The notes under the pieces were generated by a model. It searched no databases, was not told where the DNA came from, and saw only the letters and a program-made list of their open reading frames with translations. Of a stretch of DNA of 64,000 nucleotides, positions 5,146-56,126 are shown one piece after another. Source of the stretch: Candidatus Nomurabacteria bacterium (lineage in GTDB: Bacteria > Patescibacteriota > Patescibacteriia > UBA1558 > GWA2-36-10). Location: positions 711,918 through 775,917 of the forward strand of contig JACKFO010000002.1 of NCBI GenBank assembly GCA_020632415.1, read 5' to 3'. Every line of letters begins with the position of its first letter. The stretch's first letter is position 1. Made by a program: the position numbers and the translations under genes.

Positions 5146-5179
5146 CCCCGCCTCGCTTAAGCGAGGCGGGGCTTTTTTT
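5146..5179 (+). terminator. Rho-independent terminator after recA
   Basis: GC stem ccccgcctcgc/gcgaggcgggg followed by a T-run. Confidence 0.7.
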
Positions 5180-5195
5180 ATCTGCTTTTTTCGGC

Positions 5196-5201
5196 TATAA
5201 T
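5196..5201 (+). promoter_or_regulatory. -10 box TATAAT six nt upstream of the ATG (leaderless-type promoter)
   Basis: ttttttcggcTATAATagacgcATG. The same ttttttcggctataat string recurs at 55844-55859. Confidence 0.4.
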
Positions 5202-5207
5202 AGACGC

Positions 5208-6635
5208 ATGTCTACGGCAAACAAAATTTTTTCCAACACAGTTTGGCAGATGGTTATTCGAGCTGTAAGTGTTTTGATTGGAGTTTTAAATTTGGCTTTA
5301 ATTACTCGTATTTTGGGAACAACAAATTTTGGTTTTTACACCACAATTTTTGCTTTTGTTCAGACTTTTATGATTTTTGCCGATCTTGGTTTGTATCTAA
5401 CTTTACTAAGAGAGGTTTCCGAAGCCAAAGATTGTAAGCAAGAATCAAGGGTAGTTAATAATATTTTTACAATTAGATTTTTTGCCTCATTATTTTTTTT
5501 AGGGCTCGCTCCTCTTTTGGTTTATTTTTTGCCTTATGACCAGGAAGTCAAAACACACATCACTTATTTCTTACTAGCCTTCTTTTTTCAAAGTTTAGTC
5601 TCAACTCTTTCTGCTGTCTTTGCTAAAAAACTAGAAATGCCAAAAGTAGCAATCGCTGATTTGGCCAATAAAGTAGTTTATTTTTTTGTTTTACTTTATT
5701 TATTTTTTGAATTTGGTAATTTAAAGCAGGTTTTATCTTGGCACTCAGCTACGCAAGCTTTTGGTTTTGTGATTTTGTTTTTCTTTTTAAGAAAACACGT
5801 ACATTTAAATTTTGCTTGGGATTTTAAATATTGGAAAAAAGTATTGATCGCCACTTGGCCACTAGCTTTGACCGTTGTTTTGAACCTGGTTTATTTTAAG
5901 GCAGACACTTTGATTTTATCCGCTTTTGCTAGCCCAGAAGACGTTGGTTTGTACGGCGCTCCTTATCGAATTTTAGAGGTTTTGGTGACTTTTCCGCACA
6001 TGTTTATGAGTTTGATCTTACCTTTATTTACAGCGGCTTATTTGACTGATAATTTAGGCAGACTAAAGGAAATTTGGCAAAATGTTCTTAATTTTTTTAT
6101 AGTTTTATCAGGAGCAATGCTTTTGGGGACTTGGCTGATCAGTAAACCCTTGATGATTTTATTAGCTGGATCGGACTTTGCTATTTCTGGACAAATTTTA
6201 AATATTTTAATTATTGCCACAGTAGCAATTTTTTTCGGCACCCTCTTTACTTACTTGGTTGTGGCGATTGCCGCTCAAAAAGAAATGGTCAAATATTTTT
6301 TGCTAGCCGCCATTTTTGGTTTGCTGGGCTATTTTCTTTTTATTCCATCTTTTGGCTATTGGGCCGCAGCTTGGATGACGGTTTTTGTAGAATTTTTGAT
6401 TGCCTTTTTTGCTTATTTAGTTTTAAGGAAACATCTTAAATTAAAAAGTGATTTAAATGTTTTATATAAAACTGCTGAAGCTTTTTTGCTAGCTTTTGCT
6501 TTTGGCTATTTGATTAGGAGTTGGCATTTTATTTTGGTCTTTGTTCTTTCTTTAACGGTTTACGCCTTGAGTTTATATTTATTAAAAGCTGTTGATTATA
6601 AAACCATTCAACAATTATTTAACAAGTCAGAATAA
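5208..6635 (+). CDS. Polysaccharide biosynthesis protein / oligosaccharide flippase (Wzx/MurJ-like MOP superfamily)
   Basis: 475 aa with about 12-14 TM helices; composition and topology are typical of the Polysacc_synt family. Confidence 0.6.
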   Translation: MSTANKIFSNTVWQMVIRAVSVLIGVLNLALITRILGTTNFGFYTTIFAFVQTFMIFADLGLYLTLLREVSEAKDCKQESRVVNNIFTIRFFASLFFLGLAPLLVYFLPYDQEVKTHITYFLLAFFFQSLVSTLSAVFAKKLEMPKVAIADLANKVVYFFVLLYLFFEFGNLKQVLSWHSATQAFGFVILFFFLRKHVHLNFAWDFKYWKKVLIATWPLALTVVLNLVYFKADTLILSAFASPEDVGLYGAPYRILEVLVTFPHMFMSLILPLFTAAYLTDNLGRLKEIWQNVLNFFIVLSGAMLLGTWLISKPLMILLAGSDFAISGQILNILIIATVAIFFGTLFTYLVVAIAAQKEMVKYFLLAAIFGLLGYFLFIPSFGYWAAAWMTVFVEFLIAFFAYLVLRKHLKLKSDLNVLYKTAEAFLLAFAFGYLIRSWHFILVFVLSLTVYALSLYLLKAVDYKTIQQLFNKSE

Positions 6636-7915: not shown

Positions 7916-9280
7916 ATAAACAATAATTAAAACGTGAAATAAGGCAGAGACAGTCAGATTTAATAAAAGCAAAGCTAGCAAAGAACTAAAAAGGCCTAAG
8001 TAAGCAGGTTCTTTTTTTATTTTTTGCCAAACTTTTTTTGTGAGCAAAAAGAAAAAGGTCAAAAAACTCAAAACACCAAAAATTCCCCATTTGATCCAGA
8101 TTTCAAAATAACCCCAATCAAAATAGCGTGTATTTTGTAAATTTCCTTGAGCATTGATCAGTTCCAGATTTTGTCCTAGGCCAGAGCCAAGCACAGGATT
8201 TTCCTTGATTAATTTTTTAATGGGTTTTAATAGCTCTAAACGATTAGTAGCACTTTGATCAGAGCTTGGTTCTTGCAAGCCATTGAGTCGTAGACCCAAA
8301 ATTGCTAAACCAGAGTCTTGTCCTTGGCTGGAAGCTAAATTTAGACCAACAAACAAACAGATAAAAATTAAAAGATTATAGAAAGCCAGTTTTAAGCAAG
8401 GTTTAAATTTGTCTCGAGAGAACAAAAATAAAAAACCAAAAATTAAACTTAAGAAATAAGCTCGAGAAACATTCAAGGCTAAAATTAGGTTTAAGAAAAC
8501 CAAAATTAAAAAATAAATTTTTTCTTTTTTGATTAAATAAAAGTTAGCTGCCAAAAAGAAGAAGGGAATGATTAAGATTTGTTCTGGAAAAACTACGCGC
8601 CAATAAAAAGGCGTGACTAGAGTAATTTTGGCCAAAGCAAAATCACGTAGCCAATTATAATAGGCTTGGTGAATAATCGTCGTTTCACTGACGAATAAAA
8701 AGAAATTTAGTAAAGCCCAGACAGCGCTACTTAATAAAAAAGCAATGATTAAATTTTTGAGGAAGGTTTTATTTTTTTCTGGTTTTAAAAATTCACTTGC
8801 TGGAATAAATAAAATTAAAAAAGCAAAAGGAATCAAATCTTGGTAAATATATTTTAGTTCATGACCAGCTTTGATTCCTAAAAAGGTGGCTAAAAATAAA
8901 AAGCAATAAAAAGTAATTAGAGAAAATAATATTTTTTTATCTATTTTAAAATTTTTGTATTTTTTATAAAATAAAAATTCGCTTAAATACAAAATTAAAA
9001 AAATAAGAGTCAGAGAGGTACGAAGGGAGAGACCGGAAAATTCAAAAAAATGTCCGGCGCCACCTAATAAATATTCACTAAGCAAAATCAACCAGGCTAA
9101 ATTTTTATTTTTTAAATAAATTAAAATAAAACCCAAGAGTAATAAAAAACTCAAAGTATTTGCTAGCAAAGAATGATTGATAAAAGCAAAAGAAAGTCCG
9201 CGGAGCAAAAAAAACCCCAGACTCAGTGATAAAATTTGTAGCCAAGAGATATTGGCTTTTGAGGTAGAAAATGATAACAT
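7874..9280 (-). CDS. O-antigen ligase/polymerase-like (Wzy_C) membrane protein, paralog
   Basis: Multi-TM protein with the motif NRLELLKPIKKLIKENPVLGSGLGQ. It is convergent with the previous gene and the 3' ends overlap by 42 bp. Confidence 0.5.
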   Translation of the reverse strand: MLSFSTSKANISWLQILSLSLGFFLLRGLSFAFINHSLLANTLSFLLLLGFILIYLKNKNLAWLILLSEYLLGGAGHFFEFSGLSLRTSLTLIFLILYLSEFLFYKKYKNFKIDKKILFSLITFYCFLFLATFLGIKAGHELKYIYQDLIPFAFLILFIPASEFLKPEKNKTFLKNLIIAFLLSSAVWALLNFFLFVSETTIIHQAYYNWLRDFALAKITLVTPFYWRVVFPEQILIIPFFFLAANFYLIKKEKIYFLILVFLNLILALNVSRAYFLSLIFGFLFLFSRDKFKPCLKLAFYNLLIFICLFVGLNLASSQGQDSGLAILGLRLNGLQEPSSDQSATNRLELLKPIKKLIKENPVLGSGLGQNLELINAQGNLQNTRYFDWGYFEIWIKWGIFGVLSFLTFFFLLTKKVWQKIKKEPAYLGLFSSLLALLLLNLTVSALFHVLIIVYLALSLALLLRDNQ

Positions 9281-9346
9281 AAGACTAGCTTATTTTAGCA
9301 TTTATTTGTGAATAAGGTAATATATTGGATTGTTTATTAAAAAGAC

Positions 9347-10703: not shown

Positions 10704-10730
10704 TTTTTTGTTTACGAAAAAAGCTATTTT

Positions 10731-10739
10731 TGTTATAAT
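10731..10739 (+). promoter_or_regulatory. Extended -10 (TGtTATAAT) six nt upstream of the galU ATG (leaderless)
   Basis: tgttataatatagttATG. Confidence 0.4.
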
Positions 10740-10745
10740 ATAGTT

Positions 10746-11606
10746 ATGAAAAAAATTCGTAAAGCAGTAATTGCTGTAGCTGGGTCTGGAACAAGGTTGT
10801 TGCCAGCTACCAAGTCTATGCCCAAAGAAATGTTGCCGGTTGTCGATAAGCCGATCATTCAATTAGTAGTCGAAGAGTTGGTTGCCGGAGGAATTGAAGA
10901 TATTATTTTGGTAACAAAATGGGACAAAAAGCCACTTGAAGATCATTTTGATCATTCTTGGGCCTTGGAGCACGATTTAGCAGAAAGCGGTAAAAAAGAA
11001 AAATTAGCCGAAATGAAAAGAATTTCAGAGATGGCTAATTTTATTTATGTCCGCCAGAAAGGACCATATGGTAATGGAACCCCAGTGTTATCAGCAGCTA
11101 GTTTAGTTCAAGACGAAGCATTTATGTATGTTTGGGGTGATGACTTGGTAAGATCAAAAGTTCCTTTTGCCAAGCAGATGATTGATGATTATCAAAAAAC
11201 AGGACATTTAATGATTGGTGTTCAGAAAGTTCCTCGTAACCAAGTTGATCGTTATGGAATTGTTAGTCTCAAAGATAAAAAAACAATGCAGTTAAATGGC
11301 ATTATTGAAAAACCAGAGATTAAATCTGCTCCTTCTCAGTTGGCAGATTTTGGACGAATGATTTTAAATCAAGAAATTGTCGATATTCTTAAAAAAACTA
11401 AACTTGGAAAAGGAAATGAACTTTGGATTGTTGACGCTATTCGTGATTACATCCAGGCCGGAGGAGAGTTTTATGCCAAGGAAGTAAAAGATGGCGAATG
11501 GCTCACCACCGGAGATCCTTGGAACTTGTTGAGAGCAAATTTAGAATACGCTCTTGAAAGAAAAGATTTAAAACAAGCTTTAAAAAAATATTTAAAAAAT
11601 ATTTAA
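10746..11606 (+). CDS. galU: UTP--glucose-1-phosphate uridylyltransferase
   Basis: Signature AVIAVAGSGTRLLPATKSMPKEMLPVVDKPIIQ. Confidence 0.85.
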   Translation: MKKIRKAVIAVAGSGTRLLPATKSMPKEMLPVVDKPIIQLVVEELVAGGIEDIILVTKWDKKPLEDHFDHSWALEHDLAESGKKEKLAEMKRISEMANFIYVRQKGPYGNGTPVLSAASLVQDEAFMYVWGDDLVRSKVPFAKQMIDDYQKTGHLMIGVQKVPRNQVDRYGIVSLKDKKTMQLNGIIEKPEIKSAPSQLADFGRMILNQEIVDILKKTKLGKGNELWIVDAIRDYIQAGGEFYAKEVKDGEWLTTGDPWNLLRANLEYALERKDLKQALKKYLKNI

Positions 11607-14262: not shown

Positions 14263-14342
14263 AGTTGATTGAAAAAAAACGTTCTTTGGTTTATAATGTA
14301 GCTATAATTATTAAAATATTTTAAATGAAAGGGGGTGGAAAA

Positions 14343-14690
14343 ATGAAAAAAATTTTGACAGCTTTATTACTAGTCGCTCCAATGATGGTTTCTGCTCAAG
14401 ATAATTTTGGTATTGATGATTTGACCAACACCGGTTTAGGTACTCGTGGTTTAAAATCAACAATTGCTCAATTACTTAACGTAGTTTTAAGTTTCTTAGG
14501 CATTATCGCCGTTTTAATCATCTTGTTAGGTGGTTTTAAATGGATGACTTCACAAGGCTCATCTGATAAAGTAGACGAAGCTAAAAAACTTATCGGCGCT
14601 GGCGTCGTTGGTTTAATCATCATCTTAGCTGCTTACGCTATTGTGCGTTTTGTCTTAACTGAGGTTTACTCTGCGACAACCGAGGCATAG
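14343..14690 (+). CDS. VirB2/TrbC-like pilin family protein (duplicate A)
   Basis: SD aaggggg lies 8 nt upstream of the ATG at 14343. The ORF-track start at 14325 merely translates the SD. Core LLGGFKWMTSQGSSDKVDEAKKLI. Confidence 0.55.
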   Translation: MKKILTALLLVAPMMVSAQDNFGIDDLTNTGLGTRGLKSTIAQLLNVVLSFLGIIAVLIILLGGFKWMTSQGSSDKVDEAKKLIGAGVVGLIIILAAYAIVRFVLTEVYSATTEA

Positions 14691-16280: not shown

Positions 16281-16392
16281 GGTCTTTTCCTTCTGCTTGT
16301 TTGATTGTCCAAGGTTCAAATCATTATATTATACTCTATTTTATCTATTTTGTCAATACACTTCGTCTTTTTGCATATGCTATAATTTAGCT

Positions 16393-18243
16393 ATGATTTT
16401 TTGGTCTAAAATGGGCTTATTTTTGGAAAAACACAGCAAGAAGCTATTAGTTCTGGCTATTGTCTTTTTTGCTCTATTTCTCGCCTTTTTGAGCCTCAGA
16501 AAGCTTGATTACTTTGCTTACAATGCCTTTGATTTGAGTATTTTTAATCAAGTTTTTTATAACACTCTGCATGGTCGTTGGTTTGAGATGACGATCAATC
16601 TTAATAGCTATTTAGCCGATCATTTTACACCAATCATTATTTTGTTTTTACCTTTTTATGCGCTGTGGCCCAAGGCCGAAGGATTGTTAATTTTGCAGTC
16701 TTTTATTTTAGCCTTTTCGGCTTGGCCGATTTACTTGATTAGCCGGCATGTTTTGGCTAACAAAAAAATTTCTTTTTTCATTGCCCTAGCTTGGCTATTC
16801 AATCCTTTTGTTCATAGCGCTCATTTTTATGAATTTCATCTATTGCCAATCGCAGTTTTATTTATTTTTTGGGCTTTTTATTTTTATCAAAAAGAAAAAT
16901 TTAAATATTTTATTTTATTTTTCATTTTAAGTTTATTAGTTAGAGAAGATGTTGCTTTGATTTTGTTAGGCTTCCCTTTTTTGGCTATTTTGGAACAGAG
17001 AAAAAAATTTTGGGTTATTCCAAGTTTGGTTTTGGCGCTATGTTATTTCTTTTTAAGTTTAAAAATTATTGGTCATTTTGATCCCAGCGGTTCTTATAAA
17101 TTTTTTATTTATTATTCTTGGCTAGGCGGACATAGTTTGGGCGAAATTATTTTTTCTTTTTTAATCCATCCTTTAAAAGTTTTACAACATATTTTTAGTT
17201 TGCAAAATATGTTTAATTTGGCAATAATTTTTTGGCCATTTTTATTTTTTCCATTTTTAAAACCAAAGTATTTTATCTTTTTTCTTTTACCATTGTTACA
17301 AATCATTATGACTGGTGGAGGATTTTCTTCAATGGTTTATCAGAGTCATTATATTTTATTTTTTTTACCTGGCTTATTTTTTGCTTTTATTTTTTCTTTT
17401 CAAAAAATCATTAAATTTAAGAATAAAAGTTTTATTTATTTACTCTTGTTTGTGACTGTAATTTATTTAGATTTATTTTTATCACCAGTTAAACAAGTTT
17501 TTCTTTATCCAAAACAGGAGAGCTTTATTACAGCAAAACAAGAAATGATCAAAACACTTGGCAGCGACAAAACATTGGCAGTGAGCGCTTCTTTTTTGCC
17601 GGCCTTAAGCACTAGAGAAAAAATTTACGCAGTTAATTATAGCTATTTTGCCAAAAGTCAGTTTGCTAAAAAAGATTTTATTTTACCAGATGTAGATTAT
17701 ATTTTGCTTGATTATAGCGACTTTATTGCTGATTTGCTAGAAAAGGAAACTAACAATCTTTTAGCTAGTCAAAGACCAAAGATGAATGATCGCTGGAAAG
17801 CCTTACTAGATAATTATCATTTAGAAAAAATAGATCATGATTTATTTTTATTCAGTAAAAAAACAGCAGAGGATCAAGAAAAATATCGGTTATTAGATTT
17901 CATTGAGCGTCCTGACAATCTACCAAATAAACTGATCTTAAATCAAGAATATATAGTAGATAAAGATGTTTTGAGCTTGGAGTTTAATCCTGATTTTTTT
18001 GCCGAAAATTATTTGATTCGTTTTTATGCTCAAGATTTTTTTTATGATTTACCGCTTGACTATGCTCTGATTTCCAAGGCTTTTCTAGACAAGCAGAAAG
18101 TGATTAAATTAAATTATTATCTCAGCTCAGAAATAAAAGCTTATCAGGTATTTTCTTGGAGCGGAGAAAACAAATTAGGATTGATTGGCGAGGTTGTTCC
18201 AGATTTGCAAATAAAAACTCTAAACGAAAAAATAAGCCTATGA
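16393..18243 (+). CDS. DUF2079-like polytopic membrane protein (putative envelope glycan-modifying enzyme)
   Basis: N-terminal motif AYNAFDLSIFNQVFYNT and many TM helices. TATAAT at 16381-16386 lies 6 nt before the ATG. The longer ORF from 16216 overlaps the convergent lipoprotein and was rejected. Confidence 0.5.
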   Translation: MIFWSKMGLFLEKHSKKLLVLAIVFFALFLAFLSLRKLDYFAYNAFDLSIFNQVFYNTLHGRWFEMTINLNSYLADHFTPIIILFLPFYALWPKAEGLLILQSFILAFSAWPIYLISRHVLANKKISFFIALAWLFNPFVHSAHFYEFHLLPIAVLFIFWAFYFYQKEKFKYFILFFILSLLVREDVALILLGFPFLAILEQRKKFWVIPSLVLALCYFFLSLKIIGHFDPSGSYKFFIYYSWLGGHSLGEIIFSFLIHPLKVLQHIFSLQNMFNLAIIFWPFLFFPFLKPKYFIFFLLPLLQIIMTGGGFSSMVYQSHYILFFLPGLFFAFIFSFQKIIKFKNKSFIYLLLFVTVIYLDLFLSPVKQVFLYPKQESFITAKQEMIKTLGSDKTLAVSASFLPALSTREKIYAVNYSYFAKSQFAKKDFILPDVDYILLDYSDFIADLLEKETNNLLASQRPKMNDRWKALLDNYHLEKIDHDLFLFSKKTAEDQEKYRLLDFIERPDNLPNKLILNQEYIVDKDVLSLEFNPDFFAENYLIRFYAQDFFYDLPLDYALISKAFLDKQKVIKLNYYLSSEIKAYQVFSWSGENKLGLIGEVVPDLQIKTLNEKISL

Positions 18244-19976: not shown

Positions 19977-21507
19977 TTTGATAAATTTCGACTTCCTGAT
20001 CTTCATAAACTAAAGAAATGTTTTGGTCAGCGACTAAAGCATTTTTTAATTCTTCTTTTTTATTTTCTTTTTCTAATAAAATATAATTACTATGAAATTT
20101 TTCTTTGATTGTCGTAGCCAAGTCATCGGTCTCTTGGCCAGAGCCCAAATCTAAATACAATTGATGTAGATCAAGGCTGTAATTATGCATAAAGGTTGGA
20201 TCCAGGCCAATGAGATAATAATTTTTTTGGTTGTGATAAAAAAGCATCGGCCACTGATCCCAGTCATCGTGAAAAACAATGCTTTGTTCTGGAGTATTAT
20301 TTTTAAGCCAAGCACTTGCAGCAGCAAATCTGTCGAAAGCTAGTCTTTGTGGCAGATTAAAAGTAAGCGCTTTGTTCAAAATCAAAGGGATGACCACGAT
20401 CAGCAAAATGCTCAAACTGATCGCAGTGTATGTTTTTAAATAAATATTTAATTTAAGCCAAAAATTTTTAATATTTTGGCGATTAAAAATACTTTTTAGA
20501 TCATTGGCGGCAAAGCTCACAAAAAGCAACAAGAAAGGTAAAAAATATTCAATATAACGACTAGATTTGATCGTTAATAACAAAAAACCAAAGCTTAACA
20601 AAAGACTAAAAGTTGTTTTTTGTGTTAATTTTTGGTAATTAAAGACCAATAAGATGATAAAAAGCCAACTTAAGATAAATAAATGTGGAGCAGAAGATAA
20701 GATTTTGAAAAAACTTGCCCCATACCATTCTCCGCCAACAGCAAACTGATTGCCAAGATTGATTAGTCCGATTTGGATCACTTGCTGCCAATAGAAATAA
20801 AGATTTTCTGGCCAATAAGGATGAGAAATTAGTCCAGCTAATATTCCTCCTAGGCTCCAGATTATTTTTTGCCAATGATAATGTATTTTGACTGAACTTA
20901 TTTTATTGTTGAGCCAAATACTGACAAAATAAGCCAAGAGGATTGGGAAAATAATTGGCCAGCCACCATAAAGCCAAACAAATAACCAGCTCAAAGCAAA
21001 GAGTAATTTATTTTTATTTTTTAAGAGAGCATAAATAAAAAATAAGCAAAGAATAAAGCTCAAAGAATTTGTTTTGATCAAGCTCCAGCGGAAGTTTAAA
21101 TTTGGCAGGGTCAGAATCAAGAGGCTAAAAAGCCAGGCAAAGGTTATGTTTAGTTTTTTTAGAAGCCAATAGAAGCTCAAAACTGCTAAAGTAGCAAATA
21201 AAACAGCAGCAATTTTGACGCCCCACAAAGGATCAGAAAATCTGACAAAAGGAATGAGAAAAATATGATACAAAAAGTGATGATCAGTAAAATTTTCAGC
21301 CAAAGTGCTGAATTGCATCCAAGGTAGTGCGTGTAAGATCTTTCCTTGGCCTAAAATTTGAGCTATTTTAGCATGATAAAAGCCATCAGGGTCACCGATG
21401 ACGGGATTTTTTTGCCAAAGCCAATAAAAGCTCAAAAAAATAAAAAACAAAGACCAGTAGTCAAATCGCCAGGCTTGAATTTTATTTTTTAGGGAGTCTG
21501 ATTTCAT
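19969..21507 (-). CDS. GT-C-like polytopic membrane glycosyltransferase candidate (ArnT/PMT-like)
   Basis: 512 aa, more than 10 TM helices, and a first-loop acidic motif GDPDGFYHAKIAQ. On the minus strand TGCTACAAT lies 9 nt upstream of the ATG. Confidence 0.4.
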   Translation of the reverse strand: MKSDSLKNKIQAWRFDYWSLFFIFLSFYWLWQKNPVIGDPDGFYHAKIAQILGQGKILHALPWMQFSTLAENFTDHHFLYHIFLIPFVRFSDPLWGVKIAAVLFATLAVLSFYWLLKKLNITFAWLFSLLILTLPNLNFRWSLIKTNSLSFILCLFFIYALLKNKNKLLFALSWLFVWLYGGWPIIFPILLAYFVSIWLNNKISSVKIHYHWQKIIWSLGGILAGLISHPYWPENLYFYWQQVIQIGLINLGNQFAVGGEWYGASFFKILSSAPHLFILSWLFIILLVFNYQKLTQKTTFSLLLSFGFLLLTIKSSRYIEYFLPFLLLFVSFAANDLKSIFNRQNIKNFWLKLNIYLKTYTAISLSILLIVVIPLILNKALTFNLPQRLAFDRFAAASAWLKNNTPEQSIVFHDDWDQWPMLFYHNQKNYYLIGLDPTFMHNYSLDLHQLYLDLGSGQETDDLATTIKEKFHSNYILLEKENKKEELKNALVADQNISLVYEDQEVEIYQIN

Positions 21508-21727
21508 CTATTTGGTATTGTAGCAAAACAAGAAATCTCCGCCAAGCATGGGGGCGGAGATTCAGATATTTTTCCTGTTGGTATCTTATTATGGAAAGAG
21601 AAAGTCGTCAAGTTTTCTCTGGCCTCAGAGCAATGATTTAGGTTGATTTTTGTCTGCATTTTTGCTACAATAGTTTTATCAACCGAGCATAAATATCTTT
21701 TATTTATGCTTTTTAAATAAAAAATAT

Positions 21728-31624: not shown

Positions 31625-31667
31625 TAAATTTCTAATTTCTTATATTCAAATTATAGCGTATTTTTGC

Positions 31668-31673
31668 TATAAT
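31668..31673 (+). promoter_or_regulatory. -10 box TATAAT nine nt upstream of the PBP1A ATG (leaderless-type)
   Basis: tttttgcTATAATtcaaatactATG. Confidence 0.4.
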
Positions 31674-31682
31674 TCAAATACT

Positions 31683-34625
31683 ATGTCTACAAACTTTTCT
31701 CGTCGCAAAATCAATGAAAATTCGAGTTTTCAAAGACACAAAATTAGCGACATCAAACCAATAAAGATTTTGGTCAAAAAACCAAAATTTAAAAAAGAAA
31801 AAATCCAAGCTTTTTGGAAATTTTTTTCTTCTCGAAAAACAAATAGTGACCCCAAGGACTTTTGGCTCAAGAGATTGTTTAAGCGTTTTTGGCGCCAAGC
31901 TTTAGCATTATTTTTTATTGGTGGTATTTTTTTTGTTGGTTTGGTCGCTTGGTATTCAAAAGACTTACCAGATCCTTATAAAATCATGGATAGGTCAGTG
32001 CCATTGAGCACTAAAATTTATGACCGGACAGGAGAAGTTTTATTGTATGAAATTCATGGCCCAGAAAAAAGGACCTTGGTTAATTTAGAAGACATTCCAG
32101 ATTATGTAGTCAATGCTACGATCGCTGTAGAAGATAAAAATTTTTATAACCACGGAGGAGTTTCTATCTGGGGAATTTTGCGTGGGCAAATTGTTCCTCG
32201 TTTACAAGGCAAAAGATCACAAGGTGGTTCGACTTTGACTCAGCAGTTTGTCAAAAATGCTATTTTGACTAACGAGCGCGCTTTGTCTCGTAAGATTAAA
32301 GAATGGATCTTGTCTTTTCGTTTGGAACAAAAATTTACTAAGCAAGAAATTTTACAATTATATTTCAATGAAATTCCTTATGGTAGCTCTGCCTATGGAA
32401 TCGAATCAGCGGCTAATTATTATTTTGATAAATCAGCCAAAGATTTGACTTTAGCCGAAGCTGCGGTACTTGCTGCTTTGCCGCAAGCCCCTTCTTACTA
32501 CTCTCCTTATGGTTCTAATCTGGATGGTTTAATAGCCAGACAAAATGTCATCTTGGATTTGATGTTTGAACAGGGTTATATTACCGAGCTCGAGGCTGAA
32601 AACGCTAAGAGCGAGGAGTTAACTTTTAAAAAACGACAAGAAAATATTAAGGCGCCACATTTTGTGATGTATATCAGGCAGTTGTTGGCAGAAAAATATG
32701 GCGAAGCAGTTATTGAGCAGAGTGGTTGGAAAATCATCACTACTTTGGATTGGGATAAACAACAAAAAGCAGAAGAAATAATTTTGGAAGCAGCACCAGC
32801 TAATCAAGAAAGGTTTAATGCATCTAACGCCGCTGCTGTTGCCTTGGATACTCAAAATAGTGAAGTCTTGGTCATGGTCGGTTCGGCAGATTATTTTAAT
32901 GATGATATTGATGGCCAAGTAAACGTTGCTTTGGCGGAGCGTCAGCCAGGTAGTTCACTTAAGCCTTTGACTTATCTGACAGCTTTTAATCAAGGCTATC
33001 GACCAGAAACAATTTTGTTTGACTTGAGCACTAACTTTGCTGCTTCAGGACAAGCTTATCAGCCAAAAAATTATGACTTAGGGGAGCGCGGACCAATTAG
33101 CATGCGTCAGGCTTTAGCGGGTTCTTTAAATATTCCAGCAGTTAAGACTTTGTATTTAGCTGGGGTTTATAATGTTTTAGATTTAGCTGATGGTTTTGGC
33201 TATACAACCTTAAAAGATCGTGACCGTTATGGATTATCTTTGGTTTTGGGCGGTGGCGAAGTAAAGCTTTTGGATCACACCAATGCCTATGCTAGTTTTG
33301 CTCGCGAGGGTGTCTACAAAGAAGTAATGCCAATTTTAAGAATCGAAGATTCTAAGGGCAAAGAAATTGAAAATAATGAAAATAACAAAGGCCGCCGAGT
33401 TTTAGAAAAAGAGCCGGTTAGATTGCTAAACAATGTTTTGTCAGATAATGCTGCTCGTTCTTATGTTTTTGGTGAGAGCAATTATCTTACTCTGCCAGAT
33501 AGGTCAGTTGCTGCTAAAACCGGCACGACCAACGACTATCGCGATGCTTGGACCATGGGCTATACACCACAGGTTGCTTTGGGCGTTTGGGCTGGCAATA
33601 ATGACAACAGTGAAATGTCCGGTGCTGCTGGTGGCTCGGCAGTCGCTGCGCCGATTTGGAATAAAATCATGAGAGACTTGGTTAAGGATTTGCCTGTTGA
33701 GTCTTTTAAAACAACAGAATTAGAGCCCTGTACCAAGCCAATGGTTTGTGGTTCTTTGGGCGCAGAACAAATTGTAAAGATTGACAAAATGTCAGGTAAG
33801 TTAGCCACTGAGTACACGCCATATACTCAGATTGAAGAAAAGAAATTTTTACAAGTTCATAATATTTTACAATATGTAAATACTAATGATCCTTTGGGCG
33901 ATCCTTTGGCTGATCCGAATAATGATCCGCAGTATGCACTTTGGGAAGGGCCAGTTCGAGCTTGGGCGGAAAAAGAGGGTTATACCAATGATTTGGTGCC
34001 GACGGAATTTGACGATGTGCATTTAGCAAATTTACGACCAAGTATAAACTTTGTCTACCCACAAAGCAATCAGACAATCAGGGATAATAATTTTACTTTA
34101 CAAGTCCAAACTTCGGCACCACGGGGTGTACGTAGAGTGGAGTATTTTATTGACGGACAGAAGATTGGTCAAAGCACCAACGAGCCATTTTCTTTTTCTT
34201 ATCAAGTTAATCCTTTGTTAAATAACGGACGTCATGAGCTCAAAGCAATTGCCTTTGATGATCTTGATAACTTTCAAGAAAGCAAAATAAATTTTGATTT
34301 GCAAAGTGATCGTTCTTCTAGTAATTTTAATGTGATTTGGTTGAATCCGGAAAATGGTCAAAATTTAAATCTAAATAATTTACCATTAGAAACGAGATTA
34401 GCGATTACTAATCCAGGTAATATCAAAAAAATAGATTTTTATTATCTTGATCCAGCAGACTCTTCTAATTGGTTTGGTTTTTTAGAATACCCAGGAGAAA
34501 GTGTAGCGGTTAATTGGGGAAGCAATGTCTCTCAGCCCGGTGTTTATAAATTGTATTTAGTAATTAACGATATTTATAATAACGTGATTACTTCTCCTCC
34601 AGTGATTGTCAATATTAATCAATAA
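31683..34625 (+). CDS. Penicillin-binding protein 1A (bifunctional GT51 transglycosylase / transpeptidase) with a roughly 290-aa C-terminal extension
   Basis: GT51 motif EDKNFYNHGGV and TP motif SSLKP. The start was moved from the ORF-track 31590 (which overlaps tyrS) to the ATG at 31683. Confidence 0.85.
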   Translation: MSTNFSRRKINENSSFQRHKISDIKPIKILVKKPKFKKEKIQAFWKFFSSRKTNSDPKDFWLKRLFKRFWRQALALFFIGGIFFVGLVAWYSKDLPDPYKIMDRSVPLSTKIYDRTGEVLLYEIHGPEKRTLVNLEDIPDYVVNATIAVEDKNFYNHGGVSIWGILRGQIVPRLQGKRSQGGSTLTQQFVKNAILTNERALSRKIKEWILSFRLEQKFTKQEILQLYFNEIPYGSSAYGIESAANYYFDKSAKDLTLAEAAVLAALPQAPSYYSPYGSNLDGLIARQNVILDLMFEQGYITELEAENAKSEELTFKKRQENIKAPHFVMYIRQLLAEKYGEAVIEQSGWKIITTLDWDKQQKAEEIILEAAPANQERFNASNAAAVALDTQNSEVLVMVGSADYFNDDIDGQVNVALAERQPGSSLKPLTYLTAFNQGYRPETILFDLSTNFAASGQAYQPKNYDLGERGPISMRQALAGSLNIPAVKTLYLAGVYNVLDLADGFGYTTLKDRDRYGLSLVLGGGEVKLLDHTNAYASFAREGVYKEVMPILRIEDSKGKEIENNENNKGRRVLEKEPVRLLNNVLSDNAARSYVFGESNYLTLPDRSVAAKTGTTNDYRDAWTMGYTPQVALGVWAGNNDNSEMSGAAGGSAVAAPIWNKIMRDLVKDLPVESFKTTELEPCTKPMVCGSLGAEQIVKIDKMSGKLATEYTPYTQIEEKKFLQVHNILQYVNTNDPLGDPLADPNNDPQYALWEGPVRAWAEKEGYTNDLVPTEFDDVHLANLRPSINFVYPQSNQTIRDNNFTLQVQTSAPRGVRRVEYFIDGQKIGQSTNEPFSFSYQVNPLLNNGRHELKAIAFDDLDNFQESKINFDLQSDRSSSNFNVIWLNPENGQNLNLNNLPLETRLAITNPGNIKKIDFYYLDPADSSNWFGFLEYPGESVAVNWGSNVSQPGVYKLYLVINDIYNNVITSPPVIVNINQ

Positions 34626-34932: not shown

Positions 34933-35048
34933 CTCCTTTCCTAGTTTGATTAAACTTAATTTTATTGTAGTTTTTTTTAGGAATTTTGTAAAATAGGGAT
35001 TTTAAAGAGAATTGATTTTTAAGGATTTTTTTGTTAAGATAGCTACTT

Positions 35049-37019
35049 ATGGATTTTCAATTAGTTTCAAAATTTAAACCAGCCGGTGACCAAGAACAGG
35101 CAATTAAAAAGCTCTATCAGGGCTTAAAAAATGGTCATCAGGCTCAGACTTTATTAGGGGTTACTGGTTCTGGTAAAACTTTTACGGCTGCAAATTTAAT
35201 TGCGCAAGTAAATAAGCCGACTTTGGTGATCTCGCACAATAAAACTTTGGCTGCGCAACTTGCTTCAGAATTTCAAGATTTTTTTCCGCATAATGCTGTG
35301 CACTATTTTGTTTCTTATTATGATTATTATCAACCAGAGGCTTATCTGCCAGCTTCGGACACTTATATTGAAAAAGAAACACAGATCAACGAAGAGATTG
35401 ATCGTTTGCGTCACGTTTCCACTCAAAGTTTACTTACTCGTTCTGATGTTTTGATCGTTGCTTCTGTTTCTTGCATTTATAACTTAGGTAGTCCAACAGA
35501 GTATCAGAATTATAAATTAGAATTAAAAGTTAATAATATTTATAATCGTCCGCAAATCTTAAAGCAACTAAATGATTTGCAATATCAACGTAATGATTTA
35601 AATCTAGTTCGTGGCACTTATGCAGTACGTGGTGAAATAGTAGAGATATTTGCTTCTGGACAAGAGGATCAATTTTATCGTTTAGTTTTTTTTGGTGATC
35701 ATTTAGAGATGATTGAATTAGTTGATTTATTAAATAAAAAAGTTCAAGAAAAATTAACGGAAATAGAAATTTATCCAGCAAAGCATTTCATGACCAACAA
35801 AGAGGATTTACTTGAAATAATCAAAGAAATTCGTCGGGACTTAAAAAAGGAGGTAGCTGCTTTTGAAAAACAAGGAAATTTAGTTGAGGCACAAAGACTT
35901 GATACTAGAGTTCGTCATGATTTAGAAATGATTTCAGAAACAGGGTATTGTAATGGCATTGAAAATTATTCCCGTTATTTTTCTAAAAGAAAAATTGGTG
36001 ATCCGCCAATTAGTTTGCTGGAGTATTTTCCAGATGATTTTTTAGTTTTTATCGATGAGTCACACATGACCATTCCACAGATCAGAGGAATGTACGCTGG
36101 TGATCGTGCTCGCAAAGAGAATTTAGTTAGATTTGGGTTTAGACTTAGCGCCGCTTTTGATAATAGGCCCTTGAAGTTTGCAGAATTTTCAAAGTATTTA
36201 AAAAAAGTCATCTACGTTTCAGCAACACCAGCTGATTATGAGTTTGAAAATTCTCAAGATGTAGTAGAGCAATTGATTCGTCCAACTTTTATTCTCGATC
36301 CAAAGATTGAGATTAGAAGCAGCGCTGGACAGCTAGACGATTTGAGTCAAGAAATTGTCAAAACCGTAGCCAAAAAACAAAGAGTTTTAGCAACAGTTTT
36401 GACTAAGCGTTTAGCAGAAGATTTGGCTGAGCTTTTGCAAGAACGAGGAATCAAAGTTCAGTATTTGCACTCAGAAGTAAAAACTTTGGATCGAATTCAA
36501 ATTTTACAAGATTTAAGAAGCGGTAAATATGATGTTTTGGTGGGGGTAAATTTATTAAGAGAAGGTTTAGATTTGCCGGAAGTCTCTCTAGTTGCTATTT
36601 TGGATGCTGACAAAGAGGGCTTTTTGCGCTCCAAATCAGCCTTTATTCAGCTAATGGGCCGTGCTGCTCGTCATCAAGATGGTAGGGTGATTATGTATGC
36701 TGATAAGACTACAGGCTCGATGAGTGAGGCGATCAAAGAAACTACTCGTCGTCGTAAAGCTCAAGAAAAATATAACCAAGAACACAAAGTTTCCCCGCTC
36801 TCAATTCAAAAAGACCTCAAAGAAAAAAGTCTAAAAGAGCTTGATCGTCAAAAGACTTTTGCTGAGCAGATTAAAGATTTTGATCAAAAAACTTTAAAAC
36901 TTTTAGAAAAAGAATTAAATCAAAAGATGAATTTGGCTGCCGAGAATTGGCAGTTTGAACAAGCGATACTTTATCGTGATCAATTAGCAGAAATTAGTAA
37001 ACAAAAAAATCGTGATTAA
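35049..37019 (+). CDS. uvrB: Excinuclease ABC subunit B
   Basis: Walker A GVTGSGKTFT, helicase motifs and a C-terminal UvrB-UvrC interaction region. Confidence 0.95.
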   Translation: MDFQLVSKFKPAGDQEQAIKKLYQGLKNGHQAQTLLGVTGSGKTFTAANLIAQVNKPTLVISHNKTLAAQLASEFQDFFPHNAVHYFVSYYDYYQPEAYLPASDTYIEKETQINEEIDRLRHVSTQSLLTRSDVLIVASVSCIYNLGSPTEYQNYKLELKVNNIYNRPQILKQLNDLQYQRNDLNLVRGTYAVRGEIVEIFASGQEDQFYRLVFFGDHLEMIELVDLLNKKVQEKLTEIEIYPAKHFMTNKEDLLEIIKEIRRDLKKEVAAFEKQGNLVEAQRLDTRVRHDLEMISETGYCNGIENYSRYFSKRKIGDPPISLLEYFPDDFLVFIDESHMTIPQIRGMYAGDRARKENLVRFGFRLSAAFDNRPLKFAEFSKYLKKVIYVSATPADYEFENSQDVVEQLIRPTFILDPKIEIRSSAGQLDDLSQEIVKTVAKKQRVLATVLTKRLAEDLAELLQERGIKVQYLHSEVKTLDRIQILQDLRSGKYDVLVGVNLLREGLDLPEVSLVAILDADKEGFLRSKSAFIQLMGRAARHQDGRVIMYADKTTGSMSEAIKETTRRRKAQEKYNQEHKVSPLSIQKDLKEKSLKELDRQKTFAEQIKDFDQKTLKLLEKELNQKMNLAAENWQFEQAILYRDQLAEISKQKNRD

Positions 37020-39443: not shown

Positions 39444-42164
39444 TTAAATTTTTTCTAGACTATTCCAATTTTTACCAAGCTCAAGGTCAACGACCAAAGG
39501 AACGCTGAGTCGATAAACTTCCTCCATGGTTTTTTTGATGAATTTAGCTACTTTTTTTGCCTCAGCCTCTGGAACTTCCAAGACCAATTCATCGTGAACC
39601 TGTAAGACCATCTTAGAGTCTTTGCTAATCTTTGGCAAGTCACGACTTATTTTGATCATTGCTAATTTTAGTAAATCTGCTGCTGTGCCTTGCAAGGGCA
39701 TATTGATCGCCATTCTTTCCGCAGAAGCAACTAGCATGGGCATAGAGGAATTAATTTCCGGTAAATATCTACGTCGACCAAAGATGGTTTGGGCGTAGCC
39801 ATATTGATGAGCAAATTTTTTGGTTTTTTCGATATAGTCTTTAATTTTTTTGTAGATTGTAAAATATTTCTCGATAAAGTTTTTGGCCTCTTGGCGGTTC
39901 ATATCTGTTCGCTGGGAAAGTCCCAATGAGCCTAGGCCATAAAGGACGCCAAAATTTACTTCTTTAGCCGTGCGACGAATATCTTTGGTCACATCTTTTA
40001 GATCAATGTTGTGAATTTCGGCAGCGGTTCTAGCATGAATGTCTTCGCCATTTAAAAAACTTTCGGTCATTTTTGGATCTTTAGAAATTGCCGCAGCCAG
40101 TCTCAGTTCAATTTGCGAATAATCAGCAGCAAGTAATAAATAACCCTTTGGCGCCACAAAAGCTTGACGAATTTTGCGACCAAGTTCCGTACGGATTGGA
40201 ATATTTTGTAAATTTGGATCAGAAGAAGAAAGTCTACCAGTAGCGGTGATTGTTTGGTTGTAGCTGGTGTGGATTCTTTTGTCTTTCGGATTTACTAGTT
40301 CTGGCAAGGCTTTGATATAAGTTGATTGTAGTTTACTTAATTCTCTGAATTCGATAATCAAAGGAATGATCGGGTGCTCTTTTTTCATTTTTTCAAGTTC
40401 TGAGGCTGCGGTAGAGAGTCCGGTTTTAGTTTTTTTGATTCCTTTGCTTTGGATTGCTAGTTTTTCAAAAAGAATTTCTTTGAGCTGAAGAGGCGAGGCA
40501 ATATTAAATTCTTGGCCAGCAATCTGATAAATTTTTTTTGTTAACTTTTTAAGCTCTTGAGCAAATTCTTTTTCCATCTTTTTTAAAAATGGAATATCTA
40601 AGATAATTCCCTTTAGCTCCATTTCAGCCAAAATAGGAATCAAAGGAATTTCCATCTTAATCAACAGTTCATAATTTTTCTTTTCCTGACTTTCTGGTAA
40701 TAATTTTTGGTATAGACGCCAGGTAATGTCAGCGTCTTCAGCGGCATACCAGGCTAATTTTTCTTCAGGGATTTCGCTAATCTTAATTTCTTTTTTGCGA
40801 GATTTTTCTTCTTCTGGTAACAAGTCAGCGAGTTTTAATTTTTTATAACCCAAATAAGCAAAAGCTAATTCTTCTAACTTTAAGCCACGATCAGGATTGC
40901 TTAAATAAGCAGCCAACATTGTATCAAAGGCAATGCCGCGCAAGCTAATATTTAAAACTTTTAAGACTTTATAATCAAATTTTAAATTATGTCCAACTTT
41001 GGCAATTTTTTCGTTTTCTAAAATTGGCTTTAATTTCTCTAGAGCATATTTTTGAAAATCTTCATTTTCTAGTTGGACAAAATAAGCTTCTTCTGCCTGC
41101 CAGGAAAAAGAAAGGCCAATAATTTTTTCTTGCAGAACATCGAGTCCAGTGGTTTCGGAGTCTATGGCAAATATTTTTTGTTGAGCTAAAATTTTTAAAA
41201 ATTGATCAAAAGATTTTTTTTCTTTAATTTTTTGATATTTTTCTTTTGCGGTATTTATTGTTTGATGTTGTTGAATGGCTTGTTTTAGTGGGATTTTATT
41301 TAAGAGAGAATTAAATTCTAATTTTTGAAAAATTTGATAAACTTCTTCGGCATCAAAATCACCAAATTTTGCTTGTTCTAAATTCCAGTCAAGTTTCAAG
41401 TCATTGACAATTGTTACCAGCTCTTTACTGTCCAGAGCTGCTTGATGGTCGGCTTTTAGTAGTTCTCTAGTTCGATCTTTTATTTTTGGGCTATCGATAT
41501 TTTGATAAATATTTTCGACTGAGCCAAATTCTCGGATTAAATCACTAGCTCCTTTTTGGCCAATTCCCTTAACGCCTTTAATGTTATCAGAAGAGTCGCC
41601 CATCAAAGCCTTGAGATCGATAATTTGTTTTGGTTCTAGATTAAATCTTTCTCTGACAGCTTGAGGGTCATAAATCATTATTTCGTTGAAGCCTTTTTTT
41701 AAGGTTACTACTTTGACGCGGTCGTTGACTAGTTGTAGAGCATCTAAATCTCCAGTAACAATATAGACTTCGATATTTTTGTGTTTTTCATAGACTTCTT
41801 TGGCGATGCTGCCCAAGACATCATCAGCTTCAAAGCCGCCTTTAGATAAAACGGGGATTTTGAACGTAGCCAAAACATCTTCAGCTAGAGGAATTTGTTG
41901 ATAAAACTCATCAGCTTGTTTGACTCGCTGGGCCTTGTAAGTTTCGGTTTTTTTATGACGAAAAGTCTCCTCAGCCAAGTCAAAGGCAGCTAGCATATAA
42001 TCAGGCTTTGTTTCCTTGATAATGTTTAAGATCAAAGAACTGAAGCCAAAAACAGCATTGACCATCAAGCCTTCTTTATTATGTAAAGGAGGGACAGCGT
42101 GCCAGGCTCGATGCAAGAGCGCATGGGAGTCGATAATTACTAATTTTTCTTTTTTATTAGCCAT
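39444..42164 (-). CDS. polA: DNA polymerase I
   Basis: 5'-3' exonuclease N-terminus (IIDSHALLHRAWHA), a 3'-5' exo-like middle and polymerase motifs (RRTAKEVNFGVLYG, QVHDELVLE). Confidence 0.95.
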   Translation of the reverse strand: MANKKEKLVIIDSHALLHRAWHAVPPLHNKEGLMVNAVFGFSSLILNIIKETKPDYMLAAFDLAEETFRHKKTETYKAQRVKQADEFYQQIPLAEDVLATFKIPVLSKGGFEADDVLGSIAKEVYEKHKNIEVYIVTGDLDALQLVNDRVKVVTLKKGFNEIMIYDPQAVRERFNLEPKQIIDLKALMGDSSDNIKGVKGIGQKGASDLIREFGSVENIYQNIDSPKIKDRTRELLKADHQAALDSKELVTIVNDLKLDWNLEQAKFGDFDAEEVYQIFQKLEFNSLLNKIPLKQAIQQHQTINTAKEKYQKIKEKKSFDQFLKILAQQKIFAIDSETTGLDVLQEKIIGLSFSWQAEEAYFVQLENEDFQKYALEKLKPILENEKIAKVGHNLKFDYKVLKVLNISLRGIAFDTMLAAYLSNPDRGLKLEELAFAYLGYKKLKLADLLPEEEKSRKKEIKISEIPEEKLAWYAAEDADITWRLYQKLLPESQEKKNYELLIKMEIPLIPILAEMELKGIILDIPFLKKMEKEFAQELKKLTKKIYQIAGQEFNIASPLQLKEILFEKLAIQSKGIKKTKTGLSTAASELEKMKKEHPIIPLIIEFRELSKLQSTYIKALPELVNPKDKRIHTSYNQTITATGRLSSSDPNLQNIPIRTELGRKIRQAFVAPKGYLLLAADYSQIELRLAAAISKDPKMTESFLNGEDIHARTAAEIHNIDLKDVTKDIRRTAKEVNFGVLYGLGSLGLSQRTDMNRQEAKNFIEKYFTIYKKIKDYIEKTKKFAHQYGYAQTIFGRRRYLPEINSSMPMLVASAERMAINMPLQGTAADLLKLAMIKISRDLPKISKDSKMVLQVHDELVLEVPEAEAKKVAKFIKKTMEEVYRLSVPLVVDLELGKNWNSLEKI

Positions 42165-42264
42165 ATTTCTTCTTTGATTTTAGCATTTTTACCCAAGAAT
42201 TGAAAGTTGCTCTAGACTTGAAAAATATGTCAAAATCTGTTAAATTTTAGTAGTTATTTTTTAG

Positions 42265-44274: not shown

Positions 44275-44780
44275 TTTATTTCGTTTAATAAAATTAACCT
44301 TGCTTTGAGAGTGGACATTTCTATTATAGCAAATGTTGGGGCACAACGGATATTGGCAACATTGCCAGAGTTTAAAATTTTGGTTTTTTCCCAAATTTGT
44401 TCCCAAGGTTGATGAGTGTGTCCGTGTAGAGCTAAATCGTATTTAATTTTTGATTTTGCAAATATTTTTTTTAAGGTTGTTGGGTAATGAGTGAAAATGA
44501 TTTTTTTATTCTCAATTTCTGCTGTGCCGACATTAGCAAATAGTTTTATATTTTTTAGTTGTTTTTGTAAATTTTCAAAACCTAAAATATCGTGGTCAAC
44601 ATTACCAAATACTGCCCAGGAAGGAATTTTTAATTCATCTAATAAAAGCCAAGCTTCTAAACTTTGAACGTCGCCAGTACAAATCAGATAATCTATTTTT
44701 TCTTTTTTGATTAGTGCCAGGGCTTTGTTTAGATTAGGAATGTTATCATGAATGTCAGAAATGACAGCGAGTTTTGACAT
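44271..44780 (-). CDS. Metallophosphoesterase (YfcE/MJ0936-like)
   Basis: DIHDN...GDV...GNVDH...HGHTH calcineurin-like motifs. Confidence 0.7.
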   Translation of the reverse strand: MSKLAVISDIHDNIPNLNKALALIKKEKIDYLICTGDVQSLEAWLLLDELKIPSWAVFGNVDHDILGFENLQKQLKNIKLFANVGTAEIENKKIIFTHYPTTLKKIFAKSKIKYDLALHGHTHQPWEQIWEKTKILNSGNVANIRCAPTFAIIEMSTLKARLILLNEIK

Positions 44781-44793
44781 AACTATATTATAG

Positions 44794-44836
44794 CAAAAAA
44801 AGTGAAAACCCCGCCATCCTTGTCGGACGACGGGGC
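44794..44836 (-). terminator. Rho-independent terminator of the GC-rich hypothetical gene
   Basis: ccccgcc...gacgggg hairpin followed on the minus strand by a T-run. Confidence 0.5.
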
Positions 44837-46531: not shown

Positions 46532-46559
46532 ATAGTTTATCTTAGCAGATTTTTAGCAA

Positions 46560-47877: not shown

Positions 47878-47931
47878 GTGATTTTGATCAAGGATAAAGT
47901 AGGGGGATTATAGTCAAAATGTGCTTTTTTG

Positions 47932-55754: not shown

Positions 55755-55892
55755 TTATTAAAAAGGCCTTTTTTCTTAATAACGCTCAGTATCATAGCCA
55801 AAATTTGATAAATTGTCAAGGTGAGCTTGATTTGTTTTTTTGTTTTTTTCGGCTATAATTAAGGCATTGTTAATTCATTAAAGAATAAAATC

Positions 55893-56126
55893 ATGAAAAA
55901 GCTAATTAAAATTCAATTTGCTGTCCTCTTGTTAGGCACTGTTTTTGCTTGGGGCAACTTTATTTGGGAGCTAGTTTACTATTTACAAGAAAAAGCTTGT
56001 CCAACCGGCTGCGTGGTTGGTTTGGTTAATCCATTTTTGACCCCTTGTTTTTATGGGGCTTGTTTTTTCTTAATTGCCTTTGTTTTAAGTGCAATGATTT
56101 TGAAAGAAAATAAAAAAGAAAATTAA
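55893..56126 (+). CDS. Hypothetical small Cys-containing membrane protein
   Basis: 77 aa with two TM helices; CPTGC...C...C. Confidence 0.35.
   Translation: MKKLIKIQFAVLLLGTVFAWGNFIWELVYYLQEKACPTGCVVGLVNPFLTPCFYGACFFLIAFVLSAMILKENKKEN

Follow-up and report, generated by a model that had tools for sequence, protein, structure and literature searches.

Does a −10 hexamer placed almost against the start codon, an arrangement that recurs in a 64-kb stretch of contig JACKFO010000002.1 (hereafter the window), mean that the genes behind it are transcribed into leaderless mRNAs? The first-pass annotation of the window had listed five genes with TATAAT or TACAAT 6-9 nt upstream of the ATG and with no Shine-Dalgarno (SD) sequence, and had proposed that the transcripts begin at the AUG or 1-3 nt from it. 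The hexamers and start codons were all located where that annotation had placed them. A search for exact TATAAT or TACAAT with the start of a long open reading frame (ORF) 3-12 nt downstream returned these five genes and two new ones, at 44780(-) and 58916(+). Every computational test run supports the proposed reading, including the extended −10 at most sites, the restriction of the sites to the heads of transcription units, the terminators upstream of three of them and the spacing kept in orthologues. We consider it probable that the sites are true promoters of the sigma-70 type, in most cases extended −10 promoters (TGnTATAAT) with a weak or absent −35, which give leaderless or near-leaderless mRNAs. 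As to the identity of the genes, Pfam matches agree with the names flippase (Polysacc_synt), galU (NTP_transferase), DUF2079 and PBP1A (Transgly and Transpeptidase); the 512-residue membrane protein previously called GT-C-like has no Pfam match.

The arrangement is well above chance. TATAAT or TACAAT lies 6-9 nt from 7 of the 59 gene starts of a provisional gene map, against 0.8 expected from shuffled upstream regions, and none of 20000 shuffles reached seven (P<5e-5). Twenty such hexamers lie within 60 nt upstream of genes; seven of them fall within these 4 of the 55 possible positions (P=3.6e-4), four at exactly 6 nt (P=4e-4). Among 1525 ATGs that are not gene starts, only four show the same arrangement (Fisher P=2e-8 vs gene starts). 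For TATAATN6ATG, 0.92 occurrences are expected and four are found, each of them at a gene start. The counts at spacers of 6, 7, 8 and 9 nt are 4, 1, 0 and 2, and the −10-to-ATG spacers in the window are bimodal, with one group at 6-9 nt and another at 28-48 nt.

The sites carry the marks of promoters. TGn precedes the hexamer at six of the seven sites, compared with 15 of all 127 TATAAT/TACAAT hexamers in the window, and the flippase gene (ATG 5208) is the only site without it; TGn is also present at three weaker or short-leader candidates (9280, 42164 and 35049). Extended −10 promoters usually have a poor −35. The −35 match to a TTGACA-like sequence is 4/6 for galU, 21507 and 31683 and at most 3 for the remaining sites, and a generic promoter scan calls −35/−10 pairs at galU (TTTACG-17-TATAAT) and 21507 (TTGGCG-17-TACAAT). 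The arrangement is found at 7 of 38 heads of transcription units and at none of 21 operon-internal genes, defined by a same-strand neighbour less than 25 nt upstream (Fisher estimate P~0.04). Terminator hairpins, GC-rich with a T-run, end a few nucleotides before the promoters at 5208, 21507 and 44780, so that a longer leader at these genes would require read-through of the terminator. At the flippase gene, only ~16 nt separate the terminator from the −10. The spacer at 44780, ATAGTT, is identical to the galU spacer. Two of the promoters have a divergent neighbour: the PBP1A −10 stands back-to-back with the tyrS −10 (CGCTATAAT, minus strand, 31657), and the neighbour of the DUF2079 site is a minus-strand promoter of perfect consensus, TTGACA-17-TATAAT. 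An Rfam scan of the window found five tRNAs only, with no leader RNA elements or riboswitches close to the candidate sites.

The geometry of these sites suggests how initiation could take place. In a comparison of 49 bacteria, the distance from the −10 to the downstream transcription start site (TSS) is centred on 7 bp, and the start element reads Y-1 R+1 Y+2, Y being a pyrimidine and R a purine (PMC12641261). A 6-nt spacer followed by (T/C)ATG would thus make the A of the ATG the +1 base, YAT itself being a YRY start element, and RNA polymerase would initiate on that A; at the flippase gene, where the −1 base is C, transcription is predicted to start with the A of ATG 5208. With a 7-nt spacer initiation would fall on the A or one base before it. 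With the 9-nt spacers of 21507 and 31683 it would fall 2-3 nt before the ATG, giving 2-3 nt leaders rather than fully leaderless mRNAs. A predicted leader of 0-3 nt leaves no room for an SD, and the 18 nt that precede each of the seven starts contain no SD-like core, as had been claimed for the five quoted genes. The 5'-terminal AUG would be bound directly by the ribosome and initiator tRNA. Leaderless mRNAs of Actinobacteria, Deinococcus, Caulobacter and archaea are known to be translated by this direct-binding route. The leaderless pathway favours mRNAs that begin with AUG, carry no nucleotides before it and are unstructured at the 5' end (PMC8459731); all seven window cases use ATG. We infer both the TSS position and the mode of ribosome recruitment from promoter anatomy, statistics and conservation.

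The same arrangement is enriched in related contigs. Eighty metagenome contigs with tsaD relatives (847 kb) were tallied for TGnTAnnnT upstream of the first ATG of ORFs of at least 100 codons, with tsaD itself excluded. Spacers of 6, 7, 8 and 9 nt occurred 45, 18, 6 and 9 times, against ~2 per other position, and two controls, a reversed motif and 645 kb of loci from outside the candidate phyla radiation (CPR), were flat. In the spacer-6 class (n=70), the free positions of the hexamer read TAtaaT and a −35 TTG is enriched at 17-bp spacing. The −1 base is a pyrimidine (T/C) in 87% of leaderless-type starts versus 61% of other starts (P=1.3e-5), and is never G. The start codons of leaderless-type genes in the relatives are ATG (74) and GTG (4), with no TTG. 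An upstream gap of less than 25 nt is seen in 12% of leaderless-type genes and 24% of others (P=0.006). The first 50 nt of leaderless-type genes are less structured (median unfolding free energy, dGunfold, 0.70 vs 1.60 kcal/mol, P=4e-5), a difference confounded by their slightly lower GC (0.358 vs 0.383); dGunfold of the window genes ranges from 0 to 3.3 kcal/mol. A stop-codon artefact, in which the in-frame TAA of TATAAT at spacer 6 would bias the choice of the first ATG, was considered and rejected, because the same-frame spacers 3, 9 and 12 have no comparable peak, the out-of-frame spacer 7 is strongly enriched and TGnTAnnnT need not contain a stop. A degenerate set of eight −10 hexamers without TG was also tried and was too noisy in AT-rich DNA relative to the reversed control, except in the closest relatives.

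These counts bear on the alternative that the promoters are real and the leaders merely short (1-5 nt), at least at spacers of 7-12 nt, with translation by some other 5'-proximal mechanism. Window spacers of 7, 9, 9, 11 and 12 nt do occur, spacers of 7-9 nt are also enriched in the relatives, and the TSS varies by 1-2 nt in known promoters (PMC12641261). The dominant class has a spacer of exactly 6 nt in both the window and the relatives, and the spacer counts mirror mapped leader lengths of 0, then 1, then at least 2 nt (PMC8459731). We regard short leaders as a possibility to be kept in mind, though an unlikely one; it would refine the leaderless explanation for a subset of genes and is not an alternative to it.

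Comparison with orthologues in related Parcubacteria shows that the −10-to-ATG spacing is kept while the bases of the spacer change at all seven genes, in three of four genomes in the case of PBP1A. For galU, TTTAC-17-TAGTATAAT-6-ATG is found in six related genomes. The flippase orthologues in loci L004 and L005 have TAGTATAAT+6+ATG with spacers ttgaat and agccct, compared with agacgc in the window. Spacers of the DUF2079 orthologues are 6 (L001), 7 (L006), 7 (L004) and 9 nt (L014), and the orthologues of the 512-residue membrane protein have TAAAAT at 7 (L001), 6 (L004) and 6 nt (L006). Metallophos_2 has TATAAT+6+ATG in both L162 and L163. For tsaD, TGTTATAAT stands at 6 nt in L081, L082 and L084 and at 7 nt in L085, and many more distant homologues have TGnTAnnnT at 6 nt. 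The uvrB orthologue in L163, whose window counterpart is among the weaker candidates, has ttttttgcTAACCT+6+ATG. A leadered control, g1119, has its −10 ~25-30 nt from the start in three genomes.

Two loci show how the leader may change around a stable promoter. A 37-bp block that holds the divergent tyrS and PBP1A −10s (in the region 31640-31685 of the window; around 10001 in L162-L164) is near-invariant across four genomes, although identity between their PBP1A proteins is no more than 63-70%. The PBP1A spacer is 9 nt in the window and L164 and 6 nt in L163. In L162 the ATG is replaced by AAG and the start must lie 32 nt further downstream, a 32-nt insertion having made the gene leadered. The polA promoter core AAAATGCTAnnAT is kept in five genomes at distances from the ATG of 12 (window), 6 (L162), 12 (L163), 24 (L164) and 24 nt (L165). 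The varying distances at polA and PBP1A indicate that the leaderless state is labile. The alignments suggest that promoters are stable, that leader length evolves and that the zero-leader state recurs.

The A/T-rich hexamers could also be read as a ribosome-binding signal in RNA, a non-SD motif within a longer 5' untranslated region that is transcribed from a promoter further upstream, as in the 'group B' genomes of Bacteroidota. Low SD use and A/T-rich sequence upstream of starts are indeed common to both, and no more than 48% of the 16S genes of Parcubacteria gave a detectable anti-SD, with bS21 often absent (PMC9297842). Group B motifs, however, lie in the leader RNA and precede internal genes too (PMC6028130), whereas the window motif occurs only at the heads of transcription units, together with promoter marks; since internal genes lack the motif, the window does not fit the group B class. 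The marks are of the DNA level (TG at −15/−14, −35 TTG at 17 bp, Y-1 R+1), terminators stand immediately before three sites, at 55844 an identical core serves a gene whose ATG is 33 nt away, and a functional SD exists in the clade. Taken together, these observations make an RNA-level motif improbable.

A third explanation is that the starts are mis-assigned, the true start lying downstream and the annotated N-terminus being an ordinary leader. The starts were set by ORF logic and homology only, and the N-terminal tails of PBP1A and the 512-residue membrane protein are poorly conserved. Against this, the nucleotide-binding loop of galU and the ESSCDE motif of tsaD follow directly after the ATG, beginning within 6-8 residues of it, and use of the next in-frame ATG would remove these essential motifs. 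Pfam models align from residues 3-9 of the flippase, galU and Metallophos_2 proteins. The N-termini align with those of orthologues and third-position changes are present; in the flippases the N-terminus is conserved as protein, with synonymous third-position changes. In-frame stops lie 3-180 nt upstream of the seven starts (33-99 nt for five of them), and no SD is found downstream of the annotated ATGs. By these comparisons the start codons of the sites appear secure, and mis-assignment is very improbable.

Hardly any credence is due to chance, by which functionless TATAAT-like hexamers, common in AT-rich DNA, would happen to lie near starts: the genome is AT-rich, the generic promoter scan rises only mildly over shuffles, composition-matched permuted hexamers are also found near starts and a 16-mer repeat described below is within random expectation, yet the excess in the window, the position-specific peak exactly at 6 nt, the TGn at most sites, the spacing kept in orthologues of seven genes and the flat reversed-motif and non-CPR controls all contradict it.

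Several points weigh against our interpretation of the sites as leaderless promoters. The −35 is weak in five of the seven window promoters. The genome has 35% G+C, so that −10-like hexamers are frequent, and the generic promoter scan called 72 sites compared with 54.5 in shuffles. The folding difference is confounded by GC, as noted above. Some relatives hold the same promoters 12-41 nt from the ATG (polA and the PBP1A of L162). The two genes with 9-nt spacers would have 2-3 nt leaders, and such leaders lower leaderless translation in tested species (PMC8459731). Among the tally contigs, one (L127) was placed taxonomically.

Leaderless mRNAs have been mapped experimentally in Mycobacterium, Streptomyces, Corynebacterium, Deinococcus and Caulobacter. 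In the 'group C' genomes of GeneMarkS-2 (Lomsadze et al. 2018), the first genes of operons have a Pribnow box 6-8 nt before the start codon, and leaderless operons make up 25-50% of the total; this class is often seen among Actinobacteria and Deinococcus-Thermus and seldom among Proteobacteria and Firmicutes (PMC6028130). A corresponding 'TA-led' class was described by Zheng et al. 2011 (PMC3160421), and 4.4% of Caulobacter leaderless mRNAs have non-AUG starts (PMC8459731). The window resembles group C and the TA-led class in its Pribnow box 6-9 nt before first-in-operon starts, the absence of an SD and a near-exclusive use of AUG, and it appears to agree with them in every sequence-level criterion tested. 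As in group C, 0-nt leaders are predicted to dominate, with leaderless heads at ~18-32% of transcription units vs 25-50%. Unlike both classes, its promoters are predominantly of the extended −10 TGn type. They resemble the extended −10 sigma-70 promoters of E. coli and Gram-positives, which have TG one base upstream of a near-consensus −10, a weak or missing −35, upstream T/A-tracts, and Y-1 with a purine +1 at 7 bp after the −10; the difference, as seen from sequence, is that the predicted initiating A is here the first base of the start codon.

The known leaderless-rich clades are mostly high-GC Actinobacteria and Deinococcus-Thermus, whereas the host here has 35% G+C and is, judging by its genes, a member of the Parcubacteria (Patescibacteria) within the CPR. 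The galU-like gene of the window is 79-86% identical to genes of metagenome-assembled genomes (MAGs) labelled Candidatus Komeilibacteria, Parcubacteria group or Patescibacteria. Such MAG labels are inconsistent: the TsaD and PBP1A of the window are 100% identical to NCBI proteins, the PBP being listed there as 'Candidatus Nomurabacteria bacterium', and the closest species-representative genomes, as judged from galU and PBP1A, go under the names Komeilibacteria, Parcubacteria or Patescibacteria. LepA of the leaderless-rich contig L127 shares 85-92% of its residues with proteins that carry the label Candidatus Paceibacterota or Nomurabacteria; one 92%-identical homologue is labelled 'Bacteroidetes bacterium'. 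Other Patescibacteria galU loci (L008-L036, Moranbacteria-like and others) gave little or no signal, with 4 at spacer 6, and L165 has no TATAAT-at-6-9 arrangement in 18 genes, suggesting that the trait is lineage-dependent and not uniform across the phylum.

In the library that was searched, no paper was found that joins leaderless genes with Patescibacteria, CPR, Parcubacteria or Saccharibacteria. The leaderless interpretation is well supported computationally; it adds a new, low-GC lineage to a well-known architecture, and not a new mechanism. A study of CPR ribosomes detected the anti-SD motif in only 48% of Parcubacteria and found bS21 frequently absent (PMC9297842), which makes SD-independent initiation in Parcubacteria unsurprising. 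On balance, we lean slightly towards leaderless initiation from extended −10 promoters being a conserved lineage-wide mode in Parcubacteria, used in the sampled contigs by ~10% of all genes and by ~40% of the extended −10 promoters that can be recognised close to genes, and coexisting with, perhaps compensating for, a reduced initiation apparatus (anti-SD undetected in about half, bS21 often absent, bS1 shortened). If this is true, a deep-branching radiation of low-GC, small genomes joins the leaderless-rich clades, which bears on the question of leaderless initiation as an ancestral mode. It would also make it testable whether dependence on leaderless translation is linked to the reduction of the ribosome (anti-SD, bS21, bS1). 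Annotation of gene starts and operons in CPR hinges on the initiation model, and gene finders tuned to the SD will mis-call starts. The rule TGnTAnnnT + 6-7 nt + ATG predicts promoters and exact 5' ends in organisms that are mostly unculturable, and the sites supply signals for gene expression without an SD that are ready for use in Patescibacteria, whose genetics is now emerging. To specialists in bacterial translation, the proposal should be plausible and not startling.

The host is probably a mixed system. Leaderless operon heads would account for about 18% of transcription units by the strong sites, and for up to about 32% when weaker and short-leader cases are included; weaker hexamers with like geometry also precede ATG 29737 and ATG 10191, in addition to the candidates in Table 1. 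Most other window genes have A/T-rich leaders without an SD, and a strong SD appears to serve a few, namely type IV secretion system (T4SS)-pilin-like paralogues and GC-rich ORFs. At the T4SS-pilin-like gene at 14343 the −10 lies well upstream and an SD precedes the start, and the gene at 14798 repeats this promoter/SD arrangement. The loci L001, L004, L006 and L013 all keep AAAGGGGGTG(G/A), and AAAGGGGGTG(G/A)AAAA-ATG precedes two T4SS-pilin-like paralogues; the host thus seems to retain a functional SD pathway. The earlier statement, by which the pilin paralogues and every gene of the GC-rich island have a strong SD, holds for two of the four T4SS-pilin-like paralogues (14343 and 14798) and fails for the other two; among the GC-rich ORFs the SD ranges from strong (45248) to weak (48936).

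Table 1. Coordinates of promoter-start sites and other features in the window, and of sites in other Patescibacteria loci (L numbers).
Feature	Position	Strand	Description
Flippase −10 TATAAT	5196-5201	+	6-nt spacer, ATG 5208; T-tract before; whole site 5186..5210
Intrinsic terminator	5146..5179	+	11-bp GC-rich stem and T-run; closes recA-like unit upstream
galU-like site	10711..10748	+	−35 TTTACG, 17 bp, TGTTATAAT 10731-10739, 6 nt, ATG 10746
DUF2079 site	16378..16395	+	TGCTATAAT 16378-16386, 6 nt, ATG 16393; membrane protein
512-residue membrane protein site	21505..21545	-	−35 TTGGCG, 17 bp, TGCTACAAT 21525-21517, 9 nt, ATG 21507; predicted leader 2-3 nt
PBP1A site	31665..31685	+	TGCTATAAT 31665-31673, 9 nt, ATG 31683
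Metallophos_2 phosphoesterase site, new	44778..44795	-	TGCTATAAT, 6 nt, ATG 44780
tsaD site, new	58900..58918	+	TGTTATAAT, 7 nt, ATG 58916
mgsA-like AAA+, weaker candidate	46529..46544	-	TAAGAT, 7 nt, ATG 46531
uvrB, weaker candidate	35032..35051	+	T-tract, TGTTAAGAT, 8 nt, ATG 35049
polA, short-leader case	42162..42185	-	TGCTAAAAT, 12 nt, ATG 42164
Short-leader case	9278..9300	-	TGCTAAAAT, 11 nt, ATG 9280
T4SS-pilin-like gene	14303..14345	+	TATAAT ~35 nt upstream; SD GGGGGTGG 14331-14338, 4 nt, ATG 14343
Small ORF, contrast	55844..55895	+	TTTTTTCGGCTATAAT core 33 nt from ATG 55893; leadered, SD-less
Tandem duplication	14324-15222		T4SS-pilin-like gene (PF18895), upstream region and downstream hairpin
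High-G+C small ORF	15669-16280	-	
High-G+C small ORF	44847-45248	-	
High-G+C small ORF	47995-48936	-	
High-G+C small ORF	57719-58694	-	
High-G+C small ORF	60409-60923		
Promoter of ORF 16280	16356..16328	-	perfect TTGACA-17-TATAAT
Promoter upstream of ATG 47877	47907-47935	-	perfect TTGACA-17-TATAAT, 29 nt from ATG
polA core in relatives	L162 20067, L163 20324, L164 21159, L165 19414	-	AAAATGCTAnnAT
TTCTAACGGG(G/A) sites	L165 9989, 14153, 14605(-), 9820(-); L162 1815, 1769(-)		
TTCTAACGGG(G/A), further loci	L008 17952-18629; L017 14117-19703; L020; L105; L122		

The 16-mer TTTTTTCGGCTATAAT, a T-tract running into the −10, is found both at the flippase site (5186-5201) and at the small ORF (55844-55859). 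It had been reported as a verbatim repeat, and it is present at both places, although the first copy starts at 5186 and not at 5185. As a meaningful repeat it was rejected: the window holds 22 exact direct repeats of at least 16 nt, many of them T-rich, and Markov-1 simulated windows contain 5.6 repeated 16-mers on average, so that the pair is within chance. It is best read as two like promoters, one probably leaderless and one with a 33-nt leader.

The tandem duplication of the T4SS-pilin-like gene contains exact repeats of 45, 144, 31 and 27 nt at an offset of 455-456 nt, and its SD-like AAAGGGGGTGG is kept in relatives, including a genome of 49% G+C. The small ORFs of high G+C (46-50%, compared with ~33% for the genome) carry SD-like GGAGG/AGGA and gave no significant Pfam family. 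ORFs 16280 and 45248, both starting ATGAAGATCAAC, may be paralogues; the promoter of ORF 16280 is the one divergent from the DUF2079 site. Another promoter of perfect consensus precedes ATG 47877, with a C-rich leader without an SD, and this ATG stands at the trigger-factor position of syntenic relatives.

A further motif, TTCTAACGGG(G/A), recurs in several Patescibacteria loci and is not present in the window. Two copies frequently face each other as an inverted pair with 50-100 nt between them, and in many cases the motif stops 0-2 nt short of an annotated ATG (PBP1A and S20 in L165, GT5 in L162). L165, where the motif occurs, is the locus without genes that have TATAAT at 6-9 nt. It may be a different start-proximal signal of other Parcubacteria lineages.

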